Shown one piece after another: positions 3,142 to 63,984 of a stretch of 64,000 bases of DNA. The notes beneath the pieces were generated by a model. It saw only the letters and a program-made list of their open reading frames with translations. It was not told the DNA's origin and made no database searches. How positions within the stretch are numbered: position 1 is the first letter of the stretch; every line of letters begins with the position of its first letter. Both the position numbers and the translations under genes were made by a program. The stretch is from Candidatus Shapirobacteria bacterium (GTDB lineage Bacteria; Patescibacteriota; Microgenomatia; UBA12405), in NCBI GenBank assembly GCA_028704885.1, contig JAQWEN010000001.1, positions 427,999 to 491,998 of the forward strand. Reading direction: 5' to 3'.

Positions 3142-4215
3142 TTAATTATTTTTTACTCTCGATTGACGGAAGAGATTGATGGGATTAATAATAAATTTTA
3201 AAATGATTATGGAAAAGATAATGGAAAAAATAGTGGTGGCGAGACCTAAAAATTGATGTGGCAAAGCAGTGAAATGAGTTAAAATGTCGATGATTAAAAA
3301 ATGAGAAATGTAGACTGGAAATGAAAGTTCGCCGATAAATCGGTCAATTTTATTGTTTTTGAATAAATTGAAGATAAAGGGAATAAAAATAAAACTAAAT
3401 AAGAATAAAACTAATTGTTTGGTGCGTTCATGAGGTAAAAATTGGTAATAAATTAAAAAAGAGAAATAAAAAAGGAAACTATAAATGGATAATTTTTGGA
3501 AATCTTTTGTTTTTAGATATCGATAAATTCGATACATCAAAATTCCTGATAAAAAGAAAATTAATTCAGTGGGAAAAAAGCGATAGTTCCATGGATCATG
3601 ATTTAATCCCCGGCTATACAAAAATAGTCTTAATCCAAAACTTAGAGACATTATTAATAGTAGATACCGATTTTTGAAGCGATTTAAAAATGGAGCCAGA
3701 AAATAAAAAAATAGTTCAAGGCTTAGTGTCCAAGCTTGACTGATAAAGAAAAAATTATAAATTTCTGGTTTAAATAATCGGAAATTGGAAGTAAAAAAAA
3801 GAGAACCGGTGGTGGTGTTTAGGCCAAAAAAAAGCAGAATATCTTGACCAAAAATAATCAAATTACTGGTGATAAAAGTTATAAAAGTGAAAGGATTTAA
3901 GTTGTAGTTTTTGTTAAATAAAGCAAAGACATTTGGAGAATTTTGGTTTAAATAAAAATAAATTAGCTCAAAAATTATGGCAAATATTAAAACCAGCCAG
4001 TAAGTAGGAAATATTTTTAAAAAACGATTGCTGATAAATAATTTATAGTCAGATTTTTTGTTATATTTTTCAGTTAAAATCAAAGCCATGTAAAAACCGG
4101 AAATCATAAAGAAAACTTCGACAGCCATTTGGCCTTGAATAAAATTGAGGCCAAAAATTGGACTAGTGTGGGCAGTGATAACGGAAATAGCGAGTAATAA
4201 TCTGATTAAACCCAT
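3142..4215 (-). CDS. Acyltransferase family 3 (OafA/YrhL-like membrane O-acyltransferase)
   Basis: N-terminus MGLIRLLLAISVITAHTSPIFGL...VEVFFMISGFYMA (the R..L..A.V..H...VFF.ISGF hallmark) and about 10 TM helices over 357 aa. Confidence 0.75.
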   Translation of the reverse strand: MGLIRLLLAISVITAHTSPIFGLNFIQGQMAVEVFFMISGFYMALILTEKYNKKSDYKLFISNRFLKIFPTYWLVLIFAIIFELIYFYLNQNSPNVFALFNKNYNLNPFTFITFITSNLIIFGQDILLFFGLNTTTGSLFFTSNFRLFKPEIYNFFFISQAWTLSLELFFYFLAPFLNRFKNRYLLLIMSLSFGLRLFLYSRGLNHDPWNYRFFPTELIFFLSGILMYRIYRYLKTKDFQKLSIYSFLFYFSFLIYYQFLPHERTKQLVLFLFSFIFIPFIFNLFKNNKIDRFIGELSFPVYISHFLIIDILTHFTALPHQFLGLATTIFSIIFSIIILKFIINPINLFRQSRVKNN

Positions 4216-37926: not shown

Positions 37927-39240
37927 GTGCAAAATATAATCCTAAACGTTTTTAAAAGTGCGTTGTATCCACCAACAGAAGATCAATTGGCGGTGATTAG
38001 GTATTTTTTTAATAATCTTTGGGTTTTAAGGATTTTTAGTTTAATAATTTTATTATTGGCATTATTTTTTTGGTATAAATTAATAATTAAATTAGCCGGG
38101 AAAAAAGTTTCTCTAATTTCTTGTTTACTTGTTTCTATATCGCCAACTTTTTATATTTTATGGCTAACTTGTCCGACTGAGTGTTTTAAAATATTTCTAT
38201 TAGTATTACTTGTTTTTGTTTTGAATAAAAATAAAAACTATTTTAGGAGATTTATTTTAATTTTGGGAAGTATTTATATAATTTTATTTTCATTTTTAGT
38301 AACAAAAGAAAGATCAAGTTTTGTGCATAAAATAGGTTTAAATGATGCTAAAAATGAAATAATAGAAAGGTTTATAGCTGAAGATTCATTAACTGATCCG
38401 ATAAAAATTCCTCTTAGTGTTAAAAGAATTGTATATAATAAATATTTTATCGAATATAAAGAATTGGTTAATGAAATTATTCCTTTCTTTGATATGGAAT
38501 CTTTGTTTTTCCAGGAAGTTCATCCAACCGAACAGAAATCGATAGTTATTTTTGTTTGGCCAGAGATTTTTTTACTAATTGGCGGAGTTTATCTTTTAAT
38601 TAAAATAAAAGATAAAAAAATTAATTCATTGGTAATATTGATGTTATTTTTTTCTTTAATAAACTTTTTATTTGATCCTTTTATTACTTTTAGAAAATTT
38701 GACTTGATTTTATTTCCATTGAGTTTAATTATGGCTTTGGCTGTTGGAGAAATTTATAAAACAAAAATATTTTTTGGAAAGATTTTTGGATTGGTAATTG
38801 TTTTTCTTTCCTTATATGGAACAATAGCTAATTATTCTGATTTAAATAAAAGACCAGATTTTTGGTTGGACAATAGACCTTATTTTTATGAATTTATTTT
38901 TAATTCGATAAAAAAAAGAGAACCAAATAATTTTGAAAAAATATACGTGACTAGTCTAGTCGGAAAAAGCGAAAGATACTGCAAATATTATCTGACTAAT
39001 TGTGATGAAAATAAATTTGTTTATGATTCGTTTGGATTAGAAAAAAATAAGCCAGGTAGAAATACAATATATGCTGGATTTGCTGGAGAATTTATTGGAA
39101 CTGATTTTAAAAATAATATAAACAAAGATTGGTTAGCTTTAATTAAAGAAAAAGATTTTACTAATATTGAGATAAAGAGTCTAAGGGATACTATTGCTTA
39201 CAAATTCGGGAACAATATAGTTGTTGGGGAGATTAAATAA
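37927..39240 (+). CDS. N-terminally truncated PMT_2/GT39-like paralog (membrane core plus C-terminal domain, no DE catalytic loop); degenerate copy or accessory subunit
   Basis: At 437 aa it is shorter than the 516-581-aa paralogs and starts with GTG. The C-terminal KIYVTSLVGKSERYCKYYLTNCD resembles the paralogs' C-terminal domain. No D-E first-loop motif is present. Confidence 0.4.
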   Translation: MQNIILNVFKSALYPPTEDQLAVIRYFFNNLWVLRIFSLIILLLALFFWYKLIIKLAGKKVSLISCLLVSISPTFYILWLTCPTECFKIFLLVLLVFVLNKNKNYFRRFILILGSIYIILFSFLVTKERSSFVHKIGLNDAKNEIIERFIAEDSLTDPIKIPLSVKRIVYNKYFIEYKELVNEIIPFFDMESLFFQEVHPTEQKSIVIFVWPEIFLLIGGVYLLIKIKDKKINSLVILMLFFSLINFLFDPFITFRKFDLILFPLSLIMALAVGEIYKTKIFFGKIFGLVIVFLSLYGTIANYSDLNKRPDFWLDNRPYFYEFIFNSIKKREPNNFEKIYVTSLVGKSERYCKYYLTNCDENKFVYDSFGLEKNKPGRNTIYAGFAGEFIGTDFKNNINKDWLALIKEKDFTNIEIKSLRDTIAYKFGNNIVVGEIK

Positions 39241-59789: not shown

Positions 59790-61001
59790 ATGGTTATATC
59801 GAAAAAAGTTTTTTTAGGACTATTTGTAGTAGCTTTTTTATTGAGAATTGGATTAGCAATTAGTACCTATCATTCGGATATCGGATCATTTGCAATGGCG
59901 GGAAAATATATAGTTGGTGAGGGTAAAGTTTTAGGATTTTTTGATGCAGTAACCACCAGAGGAACAAAAGGTGAATTAAAACTTTTTGGCGATCAAATAG
60001 TTTTTAACTATCAACCATTGGCTTATCTAATTCCTTCGGCTATTTATTTACCATTTAGACCGATAATTATTAACACGGCTAGTCAGTTAGTAAACACTAA
60101 TTGGACAGCATTACATCAAAAAAGTATTTACTGGCCACTTTTGATTTACAAATTACCAATGATATTAGCAGATTTGGCAATAGTTTTATTGTTACCTAAA
60201 TTGTTTGAGGATAAAAAGAAAAAAATATTAGCTCAAATATTATGGCTTTTTAACCCAATTGCAATTTATGTTAGTTCGATGATGGGTCAAGTAGATATAA
60301 TAATTGCTTTATTTTTATTATTAGCTTTGATTAATTTAAAAAATAAAAGAAATTATAAAGCAGTAGTTTGGGTGGCATTATCGGCATTAATTAAACCGGC
60401 TGGACTAATTTTGATTCCAATTGTAGCCATAAACGAATTCCATAAAAAAAATAATTGGTTTGATTTAATCAAAACCGCCTTTTTGGGTTGTTTGGTTTAC
60501 GGTTTAGGAGTGGCATCTTATATTTGGTCTCCAGCTTATAGATATTTTTCTTTATTTGCTGAACAAATTGGGAAAAGTACTTTTGCTGGGATAGCAGTAG
60601 CTTCTGGAACAGTAATTCCTTGGTTTTTCATAGCTTTTATTTTTGGTTTATTTTTATTTTGGAAAAAGAAAATTAATATTGAAACTATTTTTGGATTGTC
60701 TTTAATAACAAGTCTAGTATTTACTCATTTTCATCCACAATGGTTGGTTTGGATAATGCCGTGGATGATTTATGAATCAATTAGAAAAGAAGAAATAGTT
60801 CTTTATTTGGGAATGATAGCGGCTTGGTTGGGAATAGTTTTTTCCTTTGATTCAACCCTGCATATTGATATGTTTTTAGCCCGAGGAATGGTAACGGCAA
60901 CTACATTCAGTGGTAATTTAATATCGGAAATAACAATGTTATCTAGAGCTTATTTGGTAGCTATAACTGGATATAAATTTATCGAAAAGAAAGAAAACTA
61001 A
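59790..61001 (+). CDS. Polytopic membrane protein, HxD-motif family member 3 (putative GT-C)
   Basis: AISTYHSDIGSF, YKLPMILADLAIVLLL, LFNPIAIYVS and LIKPAGLIL. Confidence 0.45.
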   Translation: MVISKKVFLGLFVVAFLLRIGLAISTYHSDIGSFAMAGKYIVGEGKVLGFFDAVTTRGTKGELKLFGDQIVFNYQPLAYLIPSAIYLPFRPIIINTASQLVNTNWTALHQKSIYWPLLIYKLPMILADLAIVLLLPKLFEDKKKKILAQILWLFNPIAIYVSSMMGQVDIIIALFLLLALINLKNKRNYKAVVWVALSALIKPAGLILIPIVAINEFHKKNNWFDLIKTAFLGCLVYGLGVASYIWSPAYRYFSLFAEQIGKSTFAGIAVASGTVIPWFFIAFIFGLFLFWKKKINIETIFGLSLITSLVFTHFHPQWLVWIMPWMIYESIRKEEIVLYLGMIAAWLGIVFSFDSTLHIDMFLARGMVTATTFSGNLISEITMLSRAYLVAITGYKFIEKKEN

Positions 61002-61002
61002 A

Positions 61003-62481
61003 TTAATTTTTTGTACCATCTGGGTTTTTGACAAGTTTGAATATTTTTATGCCGTTGATCTCCCATTGATTATCAATTTTGGCCCAGCCAAAAGCAGCAA
61101 CTGACCATTCTGGATTACCGATAGGATTACATTCTATTTGGAAAGGTTCACAAACAACAAAAAGCTGGTCAGCTAATTTCTCTGGTAAATTGACTATTTT
61201 AGCCTGTTTAGTAGCTAAAATATAACGATATGGAGGATCATAGTTTTGTTTAGCAAGAAGGGCAAAATTAAAATCTTGGTTATTAGAATTGGCAATAATA
61301 GTATCAGCAATTTGATTAACAGTTTTTAGTTGAGAGTTAGGTTGGTAACGAAATGGATTATTAGTAAAAGAAAAGATAGTTATTAGGATAAAAAATGGAA
61401 CACCAATAAGTTTAAATTTATTAATTAAAAAAGCAGCAAGAATAAAAACTGAAGGAAAAAGGAAAGCAAAATAATGAGCATAGATATGTTGTTTATAAAG
61501 AGCCAAAGCAATTAATCCTGATAAGTACCAGAAAAAAATAATCCAAAAAGAAGATTTTTGTTTTTTATATTTAAGAAGAAGAGGTATAAGACAAAGAGTA
61601 AAAATAATACTAATTATTATGCCGACAGTTTTGTCTCTGCCAGTAAGAAGATCCGTATTAACTTGATTAAAGATACTTGGGAGCTCAGGAATGGCTTTGT
61701 AGGCTTTAATATTAACAGTGGTTTCACGATAAGTGAAAAAATTCAAAAGAGCTTTGGCGTTTTGACCATTGTGCTTGAGATCAAAAAGAACCTGAGGAGT
61801 GAGAGAAATAATAAAAATTAAAGCGGCTAAAAGGGTATATTTTATGAAGGGTTTTAAATTTGGTGATTTTGTTTTGATAAATTTAACAAGGTTATAAAGC
61901 CAAAAAAGACCAGTAAATGGTAAAAGGGCCAATCCAAGATAATGACTATTCATCACCATAACAAAAGCTATAGAAGCATATAGGAAATAATGAAATTTTT
62001 TGGATTTGAAGCTTTCAAAAAAGAAATAAATAAAAAGGAGACTGAAAAAAGGCATGATATTGGGATTCCAGATGAAATTGGAATATTTGATAGTTACCGG
62101 AGAAATGGCATATAAAAAGGCAGCAATATAGGCGGTTTTTGGATTAAACCATTTTTTACTGATAAAAAATATAAGAGCAACTGTGGCAATACTTAATAGA
62201 GCAATAAAGATAGCGGGGCCAACTGGGTTGTAATTGGCTAATAATAAGGAAGGAGCGATTAAGTAATAAAAATAAGGGCCAAGATACATGTTGCCAATAC
62301 TAGTTTGAGGGCCGATAAAGAATAAATTACCATGTTGAAGAAAATCTTTAATAATAACCACATCTCGGCCTTGATCACCCAAGAATTCCATATAGTCAGA
62401 AATTCGGTAAAGACGAAAGAAAGAGGCAATTAAAAGAATGATTATTAAAAGCCAATATTTTTTAAGAATTTTTTTAAGCAC
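61003..62481 (-). CDS. PMT_2/GT39-like GT-C membrane glycosyltransferase (paralog I, DxxRD variant)
   Basis: YMEFLGDQGRDVVIIKDFLQHGNLFFIGPQTSIGNMYLGPYFYY and more than 10 TM helices. The track start (TTG at 62595) overlaps the upstream GT2 by 122 nt; an in-frame GTG at 62479-62481 gives an 8-nt overlap and is preferred. Confidence 0.6.
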   Translation of the reverse strand: MLKKILKKYWLLIIILLIASFFRLYRISDYMEFLGDQGRDVVIIKDFLQHGNLFFIGPQTSIGNMYLGPYFYYLIAPSLLLANYNPVGPAIFIALLSIATVALIFFISKKWFNPKTAYIAAFLYAISPVTIKYSNFIWNPNIMPFFSLLFIYFFFESFKSKKFHYFLYASIAFVMVMNSHYLGLALLPFTGLFWLYNLVKFIKTKSPNLKPFIKYTLLAALIFIISLTPQVLFDLKHNGQNAKALLNFFTYRETTVNIKAYKAIPELPSIFNQVNTDLLTGRDKTVGIIISIIFTLCLIPLLLKYKKQKSSFWIIFFWYLSGLIALALYKQHIYAHYFAFLFPSVFILAAFLINKFKLIGVPFFILITIFSFTNNPFRYQPNSQLKTVNQIADTIIANSNNQDFNFALLAKQNYDPPYRYILATKQAKIVNLPEKLADQLFVVCEPFQIECNPIGNPEWSVAAFGWAKIDNQWEINGIKIFKLVKNPDGTKN

Positions 62482-63238
62482 GGTGAAAATTAATTTTATA
62501 CCAAAGCTTAAATAAATCAGAAAAGCTTTTAATGATAACTTTAATGTTTCTGCCCGTAGCTTGACCTTCAACCCGAGGATAATGATGAACTCCAACTTCG
62601 CTGATTTTGAAGCCAGCCTTTTTGGATTTGATTAAGAATTCACTACTAATAAAGGCTCCCCTTTCAGCTTCTAGCTTGGGAACAGTGTCAACAACCTTCT
62701 TATTGATTAGCTTGAAACCACAATCAATATCGGTGACATGAAGACCAAAAAGAACAAAAACGATGAGTTCCCAAATTTTGCTGGTAACAATGGCAGCTTT
62801 TGAGACTTGACGGGCCAAATAGTAGCCAATAATAATATCAGAATTAGTTTTTTGCTGCTTTTCAATGAGCTTAGTGATCTCAGTAAAGTCAAACTGACCA
62901 TCGGCATCAGTGAAGGCAATCCACTGATATTGAGCATTATAAAGGCCACTTTTAAGGGCGGCACCATAGCCACGATTTGGGTTGTGAGTGATGATTTTTA
63001 CTTGTTTTGGATAGTCTTTTTTAATTTCTTCTAAGACTTTGGCAGTGTTATCTTTGGAACCATCATTAATTAAAATAATTTCCCATTTTTCGGCTATTTT
63101 TTGAAGAACGGGGATGGTTTTACTGATAGTATTTTTAATGTTTTTCTCTTCGTTATAACAAGGAAAAAAGACAGAAAGCTCATTTATTAAAAATTTATTC
63201 ATGGCTAAAGTATAAGGCAAAAGAGGCTTAAAATACAA
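62474..63238 (-). CDS. Polyprenol-phosphate sugar synthase (GT2, Dpm1/GtrB/ArnC-like)
   Basis: LSVFFPCYNEEKNIKNTI...WEIILINDGSKDNT, NRGYGAALKSG, TDADGQFD, IIIGYYLAR and TDIDCGFKLINKK. Confidence 0.8.
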   Translation of the reverse strand: MYFKPLLPYTLAMNKFLINELSVFFPCYNEEKNIKNTISKTIPVLQKIAEKWEIILINDGSKDNTAKVLEEIKKDYPKQVKIITHNPNRGYGAALKSGLYNAQYQWIAFTDADGQFDFTEITKLIEKQQKTNSDIIIGYYLARQVSKAAIVTSKIWELIVFVLFGLHVTDIDCGFKLINKKVVDTVPKLEAERGAFISSEFLIKSKKAGFKISEVGVHHYPRVEGQATGRNIKVIIKSFSDLFKLWYKINFHRA

Positions 63239-63255: not shown

Positions 63256-63284
63256 TTGACAAATTGGTGAATTGGACATATAAT
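63256..63284 (+). promoter_or_regulatory. Perfect sigma70 consensus promoter TTGACA-N17-TATAAT
   Basis: TTGACA at 63256-63261, a 17-nt spacer, then TATAAT at 63279-63284. The -10 box overlaps the track's ATG at 63283, so translation probably starts downstream. Confidence 0.5.
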
Positions 63285-63312
63285 GGCCTATAATTATATA
63301 TTAATAACGCAG

Positions 63313-63933
63313 GTGAAACACAAAATATTAACTATCAGCTTTGTATTTGGGGCAATGGCGATATTATTCTTATCGTTATTCAGTCCTTCTAAGGCCTATG
63401 GTCAATCTTATTCTCAAGGTGAAAAAGCCAAACTTTCAATTGATAAAAAGATCCGATCTGTTGGTGATACTCAATATTATGACAATATTGAAGCTTCTAA
63501 TAAAACTTTTTATGAAAATGATGTAATCGAGTTTCAAATTAGAATCGAAAATATCAGCACTGAAGTGGTCTATAATATTAATACAAAAGATATTTTACCT
63601 AAATATTTAAGCTTAATCTTTTATCCTGGCACTTTTGATAAAGATCAATATATTGTTGAATGGAATATTGATAAATTAGAAGCTGGTGAAAGTAAAACAT
63701 ACTTAATTAGAGCTAAAATTAAAGATGCTACCAAGTTTAATGCTTTAACTAAACAAACTAATAAAGCTGAAGCTTGTGGTGGTGGTTCTTGTGATCAAGA
63801 CTATGCCAGTTACTTTATTGGCAAAACAACTGTACCAGCTACTGGTGCTTCTGATATAGCTTTAAAAACAATTTTAGTTATCTCAATTGCGGCTACTGGA
63901 TTTTATTTCAGAAAGTTAGCTAGAGAATATTAA
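63313..63933 (+). CDS. Secreted DUF11-like surface protein with a C-terminal sorting-signal-like tail (VPATG motif, hydrophobic helix, basic tail)
   Basis: With a GTG start at 63313 the N-terminus is (M)KHKILTISFVFGAMAILFLSLFSPSKA/YGQ, a textbook signal peptide. AGGTGA at 63311-63316 is complementary to the 16S 3' end. The mature domain resembles DUF11-type cell-surface repeats (VIEFQIRIENISTEVVYNINTKDILPKYL). The C-terminus is TVPATGASDIALKTILVISIAATGFYFRKLAREY. The track ORF starts at 63283. Confidence 0.55.
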   Translation: MKHKILTISFVFGAMAILFLSLFSPSKAYGQSYSQGEKAKLSIDKKIRSVGDTQYYDNIEASNKTFYENDVIEFQIRIENISTEVVYNINTKDILPKYLSLIFYPGTFDKDQYIVEWNIDKLEAGESKTYLIRAKIKDATKFNALTKQTNKAEACGGGSCDQDYASYFIGKTTVPATGASDIALKTILVISIAATGFYFRKLAREY

Positions 63934-63950
63934 TCTAAATTAAACCTTTG

Positions 63951-63984
63951 AAAATCCCCTGTCGAAAGATGGGGGATTTTTATT
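63951..63984 (+). terminator. Rho-independent terminator
   Basis: aaaatcccc-tgtcgaaagatg-ggggatttt forms a 9-bp stem (5 G-C pairs) that extends into a GAAA-tetraloop hairpin and is followed by a T-run. It lies 18 nt after the stop of the surface-protein gene. Confidence 0.6.

Follow-up and report, generated by a model that had tools for sequence, protein, structure and literature searches.

Where transcription and translation of a surface-protein gene begin is the question raised by a locus near the end of a 64,000-nucleotide stretch of DNA from a Candidatus Shapirobacteria bacterium (contig JAQWEN010000001.1 of assembly GCA_028704885.1, positions 427,999 to 491,998 of the forward strand). 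The whole stretch was analysed and is referred to here as the window. A preliminary description of the locus had placed a perfect consensus promoter across the ATG that opens the predicted reading frame, and had proposed that this ATG is unusable and that the true start is an in-frame GTG further downstream. On rechecking, the promoter coordinates were all correct, as was the placement of ATG 63283 inside the -10 box and of GTG 63313 in the same frame. We consider it probable, at roughly 0.85, that a housekeeping-sigma promoter here drives a single-gene unit for a small, secreted, sortase-anchored surface protein of the DUF11/CLIPPER type.

The promoter matches the consensus at 12 of 12 positions (Table 1) and is the sole perfect match in the window. 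The window has about 29% G+C, and in 100 dinucleotide-preserving shuffles of it, with spacers of 16-18 nt allowed, perfect matches arose at a mean of 0.15 per window, with at least one match in 14 of the 100. What places the promoter beyond chance is its conservation across orthologous loci. For 52 related loci, drawn from collections of genomes and metagenomes, we compared the sequence that precedes the conserved start. A perfect promoter was present in 47 of the 48 loci with enough upstream sequence to be counted (41 of 42 unique loci); the lone locus without one, L043, retains the -10. When 243 kb of related loci were scanned on both strands, all 48 perfect promoters belonged to this same module, and none was detected ahead of any other gene. 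Both hexamers were 100% identical across 37 unique orthologous loci, and they remained so in pairs of loci whose proteins are only 40-55% identical. At this divergence, identity was 65% over the whole coding sequence. Because the hexamers are fixed while identity has fallen to 57% at third codon positions and to 32% in the middle 13 nt of the spacer, our near-neutral yardstick, we conclude from these comparisons that the promoter itself is under purifying selection.

This is an ordinary kind of element in an unusual lineage: a housekeeping promoter of the sigma70/sigmaA type. It resembles the consensus promoter of that class in its perfect hexamers and 17-nt spacer, in the AT-tract that adjoins the -35 (the bases AAT directly after the hexamer are 89-97% conserved), in a Y-R-Y or Y-R-R triplet 6-8 nt after the -10, and in its intergenic position just upstream of a gene. 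Unlike a classical sigma70 promoter, it is found in an uncultivated Candidate Phyla Radiation (CPR) lineage, stays fixed across orthologs to about 40% protein identity, and has an equally conserved 28-nt module attached to it, which falls outside the classical definition. A survey of 49 bacterial species with mapped starts, one CPR species among them, reports enrichment of the -35 and -10 consensus in the majority of those species (PMC12641261). Elsewhere in the window, promoters have a recognisable -10 but a weak or absent -35; hence, the promoter of the surface gene stands out in its own genome. The preliminary description had named a transcription start mapped upstream of 63256 as a refutation; as far as sequence can address this, we detected no further promoter-like site upstream on the + strand within the 80-nt intergenic stretch. 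The preliminary description read very high expression out of the perfect match, and we would put this no higher than an expectation; escape and pausing set further limits on the output of consensus promoters in E. coli (PMC7876045).

Conservation of the DNA around the two candidate start codons argues strongly for the GTG, in agreement with the preliminary description. At position 63285, the last base of the upstream ATG, 49% of loci have G and 51% have A, and 24 of 41 unique loci have ATA, ATC or ATT in place of the ATG. Some loci have insertions of 2-3 nt between the ATG position and the GTG. Those not among the 24 are mostly blocked by an in-frame TAA or by a frame-shifting indel, such that an ATG in frame and open to the rest of the open reading frame (ORF) occurs in only 2 of the 41. 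The family consensus reads TAT AAT TAA ATA TTA ATA ACG CAG GTG; its in-frame TAA is TAT in the window. By contrast with the ATG, the GTG is the first start codon that the open frame offers in all but one of 27 unique close-clade loci (26 of 27), the exception being L002, which has ATG. Downstream of the GTG, conservation follows the order expected of coding sequence, with codon position 2 above 1 above 3 (0.72, 0.58 and 0.48).

We also compared the start calls of 91 homologs in the protein collection. The call is equivalent to the GTG in 61, shortened in 12 to begin at a Met within the signal peptide, of an MKQV type in 7, over-extended through the promoter in 4, and of other kinds in 7. The preliminary description had named conservation of the MAYNYILITQ N-terminus among orthologs as a refutation of the GTG start. 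This extension is not conserved, and AYNY occurs in only 4 of the 91 homologs. Protein starts of the form MAYNY... or ...IIAYNY... are translated TATAAT boxes, AYNY being encoded by TAT AAT. Thus, the start of the gene family can be corrected, automatic callers having placed it in at least four ways.

That ATG 63283 is nevertheless the true start, with the promoter a chance match inside coding sequence, we regard as scarcely credible. Such a reading could draw on the ATG being in frame and open here, on the four database proteins with an AYNY-type extension and on the 14% of shuffles with a perfect match. It would leave unexplained the loss of the ATG in 24 of 41 loci and its blockage in most others, and the fixation of the hexamers while neutral sites decayed; it would also place 10 uncharged residues before the charged n-region of the signal peptide, and would have the gene follow an intergenic stretch free of other promoter-like sites. 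Initiation at the internal ATG 63355 (MAILFLSLF...), the start called for the 12 truncated homologs, is just as improbable, even though ATG is the preferred start in model bacteria. It would remove the charged n-region and half of the hydrophobic core; its Met is unconserved (A63355 is present in 62%, and many loci have ATA or TTA at this codon), and codons 2-14, counted from the GTG, show coding-type conservation. An upstream leader peptide was ruled out: the only ATG available is the non-conserved one at 63283.

Table 1. Features of the surface-protein gene and its surroundings, in window coordinates
Feature	Position	Strand	Remarks
-35 hexamer TTGACA	63256..63261	+	6/6 match; unchanged in 37/37 unique orthologous loci
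Promoter spacer, 17 nt	63262..63278	+	17 nt long in 36/40 unique loci, 16 nt in 4
-10 hexamer TATAAT	63279..63284	+	6/6 match, A2 and T6 present; unchanged in 37/37 unique loci
ORF-track ATG, judged not a start codon	63283..63285	+	overlaps last two bases of -10
Discriminator GGCC (NNCC in family)	63285..63288	+	63285-63286 variable, C63287/C63288 invariant
Second TATAAT, 10 bp after first	63289..63294	+	95-100% conserved; contains predicted transcription start
Predicted 5' leader, 21-23 nt, AU-rich	63290..63312	+	no Shine-Dalgarno, no structure
GTG start codon	63313..63315	+	97-100% conserved; in frame with ATG 63283, 30 bases downstream of it
Surface-protein coding sequence, 206 aa + stop	63313..63933	+	ORF from GTG
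Sec-type signal peptide, residues 1-30	63313..63402	+	MKHK, 19-residue core, AYG/Q (slash, cleavage)
C-terminal sorting signal: VPATG, hydrophobic helix, RKLAREY tail	63832..63930	+	motif and modelled helix
Intrinsic terminator: 15-bp stem, GAAA loop, U-run	63949..63982	+	-21 kcal/mol, z -4.95
-10 box TATACT of divergent GT2 glycosyltransferase gene	63214..63209	-	6 nt before ATG 63202..63200

Conservation of the 28 nt that separate the -10 from the GTG exceeds that of the coding sequence they precede. At 40-55% protein identity they retain 83% identity, compared with the 65% of the coding sequence, and on this basis we conclude that they are under stronger purifying selection than the protein. 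The family pattern is NN-CC-TATAAT-TTA-nnn-ATTAA-nAAC-GCAG-GTG, in which CC, the second TATAAT and ATTAA (63300-04) are essentially invariant and the end reads (A/C)GCAGGTG. The second TATAAT was absent from the preliminary description; its distance from the first is 10 bp in 36 of 40 loci and 12-13 bp in the other 4. Within the invariant CCTATAAT, the triplets T-A-T, centred on 63290, and T-A-A, centred on 63292, lie 6 and 8 nt after the -10. In E. coli, the start site is selected by a Y-R-Y or Y-R-R triplet located 7-8 bp after the -10, and across bacteria such triplets are enriched where transcription starts (PMC12641261). Based on these triplets, we predict that transcription starts at A63290 or A63292, which would give a leader of 21-23 nt.

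The leader itself appears to be without structure. Its minimum free energy is -0.3 kcal/mol, no better than that of shuffles, 17 aligned sequences yielded no consensus pairs, and no Rfam family matched the leader at E <= 10. A riboswitch or attenuator was rejected, as the leader lacks structure in both single-sequence and alignment folding. We found the module at no other gene in the 307 kb scanned. L002, the lone lineage without AGGTG, is the one whose start codon is ATG, which hints that AGGTG and the use of GTG may be linked.

We considered three further functions for the second TATAAT and the leader around it. First, the second box may be a sigma-dependent promoter-proximal pause element, a function that would add to the proposed promoter rather than replace it, and which we regard as possible but doubtful. 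Sigma would rebind the second box, and RNA polymerase (RNAP) would halt shortly ahead of the GTG, once the transcript had reached about 16-20 nt (near 63305-63311). In E. coli, the G1d pause promoters, which belong with lambda PR' in one class, combine a canonical -10, 6-7 nt between -10 and start, and Y-R-Y at the start with a -10-like region that lies about 11 bp downstream and whose second base falls at -1 to +2 of the start; they pause at +16 to +20 (PMC7876045). These sequence features are matched here: the canonical -10, the short spacer to the predicted start, the Y-R-Y, and the second -10-like hexamer lying over the start about 10-11 bp after the first, with the strong conservation of its sequence and its spacing noted above. 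The pause-site consensus T-N-Y-G, which should stand 8-11 nt downstream of the element, does not occur at the distance seen in lambda PR', since 63302-63305 reads T-A-A-T (PMC9191641). The spacing is 10 bp and not 11-12 bp. Moreover, CCTATAAT is equally explicable as a discriminator, a start element and an AT-rich initial transcribed sequence. We know of no Q-like factor for this promoter.

A single viral contig has the same layout, TTGACA-17-TATAAT-NN-CCTATAAT, and this recurrence would favour a pause element. The module lies at 2353-2410 of L053 (IMGVR_UViG_3300035670_000766), a phage contig of about 45% G+C, and is followed by a GGAG Shine-Dalgarno sequence and a 72-aa ORF. It could be a chance occurrence or a recurrent tandem -10 design.

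Second, the second TATAAT could be a working -10 in its own right, as one of two tandem promoters, with a start near 63301 and a leader of 11-12 nt. The hexamer is perfect and strongly conserved, and many promoters in this genome appear to function with a weak or absent -35. We nevertheless consider this improbable: there is no conserved -35 at 16-18 nt upstream, a position that falls in the variable spacer (32% identity), there is no TG of an extended -10, and the TTGACA keeps its strict 17-nt distance to the first box and not to the second.

Third, the leader could be an operator for a DNA-binding regulator, either a repressor or an activator, that overlaps the start site. Conservation of the leader is base-specific rather than compositional and no RNA structure accounts for it, and the arrangement TTAA-N3-TTAA, or ATTAA-N3-TTAAT, has partial dyad symmetry and includes the invariant ATTAA. 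We judge an operator to be unlikely, about as unlikely as tandem promoters, because no conserved regulator gene adjoins the locus, the neighbours being glycosyltransferases, FtsEX and a C39-like peptidase; at 29% G+C, chance alone often produces AT-rich dyads, and the absence of the module from other genes in the 307 kb scanned also argues against it. Fur/Zur-type and IHF-type sites were dismissed on spacing, as judged by eye.

The likeliest roles for the leader are choice of the start site, promoter escape or sigma-dependent pausing (through the second TATAAT), and provision of an open landing site for the ribosome. Alternatively, it may be an initial transcribed sequence that eases escape from a very tight promoter, or a site where ribosomes land by recognising its sequence. 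A more specific proposal, which we hold only tentatively, is that the module is a lineage-specific control device that joins a sigma-dependent element for pausing or escape to a leader for initiation independent of a Shine-Dalgarno sequence, in which the GTG would be kept on purpose, and that it serves the main sortase-anchored surface protein of Microgenomatia in an otherwise leaderless genome.

The preliminary description had placed AGGTGA at 63311-63316, overlapping GTG 63313, which the sequence bears out, and had remarked that it cannot act as a Shine-Dalgarno sequence for that start. Indeed, we found none upstream of the GTG; yet this is nothing special, because a Shine-Dalgarno-like motif, even one of 4 nt, lies upstream of at most 5 of the 50 long ORFs in the window. 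Thus, its absence before the GTG is normal for this genome, and the overlap of AGGTGA with the start codon need mean nothing.

We asked how often a -10 box with at least 5 of 6 matches lies close enough to a start codon to imply a leaderless mRNA, using the 17 genes of the window that have an intergenic gap of 20 nt or more upstream of them. In 8 of the 17, such a box ends 5-8 nt before the start, where about 1.1 would be expected (binomial P about 4e-6); examples are the starts at 4215 (-), 4237 (+), 24261 (-), 32874 (+), 37927 (+, GTG), 42718 (-, GTG) and 59790 (+). We used this window-only count and dropped a statistic pooled over all loci, as it was confounded by orthology. By these counts, Shine-Dalgarno sequences seem scarce in the genome, and operons seem mostly to begin with leaderless mRNAs. 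The divergent GT2 glycosyltransferase gene, whose promoter stands back-to-back with that of the surface gene, is a case in point: columns 63209 and 63211-63214 of its -10 box are 100% conserved, the CAT at 63200-63202 is 95-100% conserved, and box and spacing are kept in about 37 orthologous loci. Its mRNA is probably leaderless. The surface gene falls outside this pattern: from the ends of its two boxes to the GTG there are 28 and 18 nt, and in the range of 5-8 nt before this codon no hexamer with both A2 and T6 ends. It would therefore be an exception in its own genome in having a leader.

Leadered mRNAs poor in Shine-Dalgarno sequences are known from Bacteroidota and Cyanobacteria, and leaderless mRNAs from Actinobacteria and Deinococcus. 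The surface gene shares with the former the lack of a Shine-Dalgarno sequence and an AU-rich, unstructured start region. The neighbouring genes resemble the latter, with a -10 that ends 5-8 nt before the start codon; unlike such genes, the surface gene would have a leader of 21-23 nt and a conserved GTG inside AGGTG. A literature search retrieved nothing directly relevant on leaderless mRNAs or Shine-Dalgarno use in Patescibacteria.

The encoded protein has the features expected of a surface protein, and the label that the preliminary description gave it holds: it has a signal peptide, a DUF11 domain and a sorting signal. Read from the GTG, it begins with (M)KHK (charge +2), followed by the uncharged hydrophobic core of 19 residues, ILTISFVFGAMAILFLSLF, and SPSKAYGQ, as had been described. 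That this is a Sec-type signal peptide stands; its cleavage site probably differs, as the preliminary description put it at SKA/YG and alignment favours AYG/Q. In distant orthologs, ...IEA/QY, ...VNA/QY and ...LMA/QY align AxA/Q with AYG/Q, and cleavage is probably there.

All 91 homologs belong to Pfam DUF11, and those with a named source are from Candidatus Woesebacteria and Shapirobacteria. In the protein itself, DUF11 (PF01345) spans residues 60-152 (E 1.1e-10, 42.3 bits against a gathering cut-off of 24.6). An AlphaFold2 model (mean predicted local distance difference test score, pLDDT, 81.6) places helices at residues 3-23 and 180-203 and a CnaA-like immunoglobulin-like (Ig) beta-sandwich at residues 41-169, with pLDDT above 85; residues 24-40, in the mature N-terminus, are modelled as disordered. 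A Foldseek search gave as its best solved match a CLIPPER isopeptide domain (9IFR; E 3e-6, TM 0.72 on the target), and its list also holds the Gram-positive pilins BcpA, SpaD and EbpC; a sequence search of solved structures returned only noise. K45, E73, D93 and N150 are invariant in the family alignment and include candidate residues for a Lys-Asp-Asn isopeptide triad.

A motif of the [VI]PxTG type is present in 87 of the 91 homologs. CLIPPER proteins (9IFR; PMC12617251) and the pilins BcpA, SpaD and EbpC resemble this protein in having a signal peptide, an Ig-like sandwich and a C-terminal xPxTG followed by a hydrophobic helix and a basic tail. Unlike the typical multi-repeat CLIPPER adhesins, it has a single domain and only 206 aa; unlike LPxTG substrates, it has [VI]PxTG, and no sortase gene was seen in the window by a crude scan for the TLxTC motif, in which the one loose match was SLISC in a 462-aa ORF near 38109 (+). 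The Pam pilins, with homologues reported in Microgenomatia, are likewise abundant, secreted, Ig-like and CPR-specific surface proteins; they have two domains, use donor-strand exchange and are encoded by an operon near ATP synthase (bioRxiv 10.64898/2026.03.03.709456). The protein described here differs from them in its sortase signal, glycosyltransferase neighbours, single domain and monocistronic unit, and we rejected membership of the Pam family on domain architecture and operon context. The product is probably a major surface protein of Microgenomatia.

Transcription appears to end shortly after the stop codon, at a hairpin of which none of 200 shuffles was as stable. An equivalent hairpin with a T-run follows 28 of the 31 unique orthologous loci examined. 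In a Woesebacteria locus of 80% identity, downstream genes for a C39-like peptidase, FtsX and an ABC ATPase converge from the other strand. We conclude from this arrangement that the unit is monocistronic and consists of promoter, leader, 206 codons and terminator. As a separate observation, the stem sequence AAAATCCCC...GGGGGATTTT is itself conserved in many orthologs, beyond the presence of a hairpin.

Taken in order, the events would run as follows. RNAP would bind TTGACA and TATAAT across their 17-nt spacer and start at A63290 or A63292 in the invariant CCTATAAT; the ATG at 63283 would be absent from the mRNA because it lies upstream of this predicted start. The AU-rich, unstructured leader of 21-23 nt would leave translation to begin at GTG 63313 independently of a Shine-Dalgarno sequence, as must be the case for almost all genes of this genome. 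The product would emerge with MKHK, a hydrophobic core and AYG/Q as a canonical Sec signal peptide, and transcription would end at the hairpin at 63949-63982.

Several points weigh against this account. The transcription start, the use of GTG and high expression are all predictions from sequence, and the 12/12 match is weak evidence when taken alone, not being significant in so AT-rich a window. The 30 nt before the GTG score 0.88, 0.87 and 0.78 at the three codon positions, a pattern that by itself is compatible with coding, although we regard codon-position conservation upstream of the GTG as weakly informative. Since the ATG is in frame and open in the window, it could in principle serve as a start on transcripts that read through from some undetected promoter further upstream. 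A GTG lacking a Shine-Dalgarno sequence is a weak initiation signal in model bacteria. Many orthologs have an n-region that reads MEHK, with no net positive charge. Finally, the start position is, by comparison of the loci, not fixed across the whole family. In a distant clade (L036-L042, L044, L048-L051) the leader has an insertion of 8-12 nt, and 9 nt upstream of the conserved GTG position there is an ATG (ATG AAG CAG GTG); in L048 and L049 GTA replaces the GTG after ATG AAG CAG. From these sequences, the start in this clade must be the ATG; hence, the start would have moved by three codons within the family, with GCAGGT still conserved.

The strict conservation of the promoter suggests that an uncultivated CPR lineage uses the canonical TTGACA/TATAAT promoter. 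The conservation of the leader above that of the coding sequence, in a genome that is poor in Shine-Dalgarno sequences and seemingly leaderless, offers a handle on how transcription and translation start in these bacteria. Promoter, leader and terminator are compact (about 60 bp for promoter and leader) and might serve as a strong expression cassette should the lineage, or relatives such as the cultivated Saccharibacteria, become genetically tractable.

Genes of protein-glycosylation type adjoin the surface gene. A GT2 glycosyltransferase and a PMT_2 (protein-mannosyltransferase-like) membrane protein are encoded beside it both in the window (59790-63202) and in L001 (685-2935), and since both adjoin it in these two loci, the surface protein may be glycosylated. 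A weak GT87-like match also lies near the surface gene, in the window only. Across the 64 kb, we detected no tRNA genes and no Rfam family at its gathering score. Of 16 blocks of 4 kb, 15 show positive GC skew on the + strand, and cumulative skew rises steadily; yet the - strand holds about three quarters of the long ORFs, so that the gene-rich strand is the C-rich one. One published report concerns a Microgenomates genome with unusual strand composition (PMC7143001).

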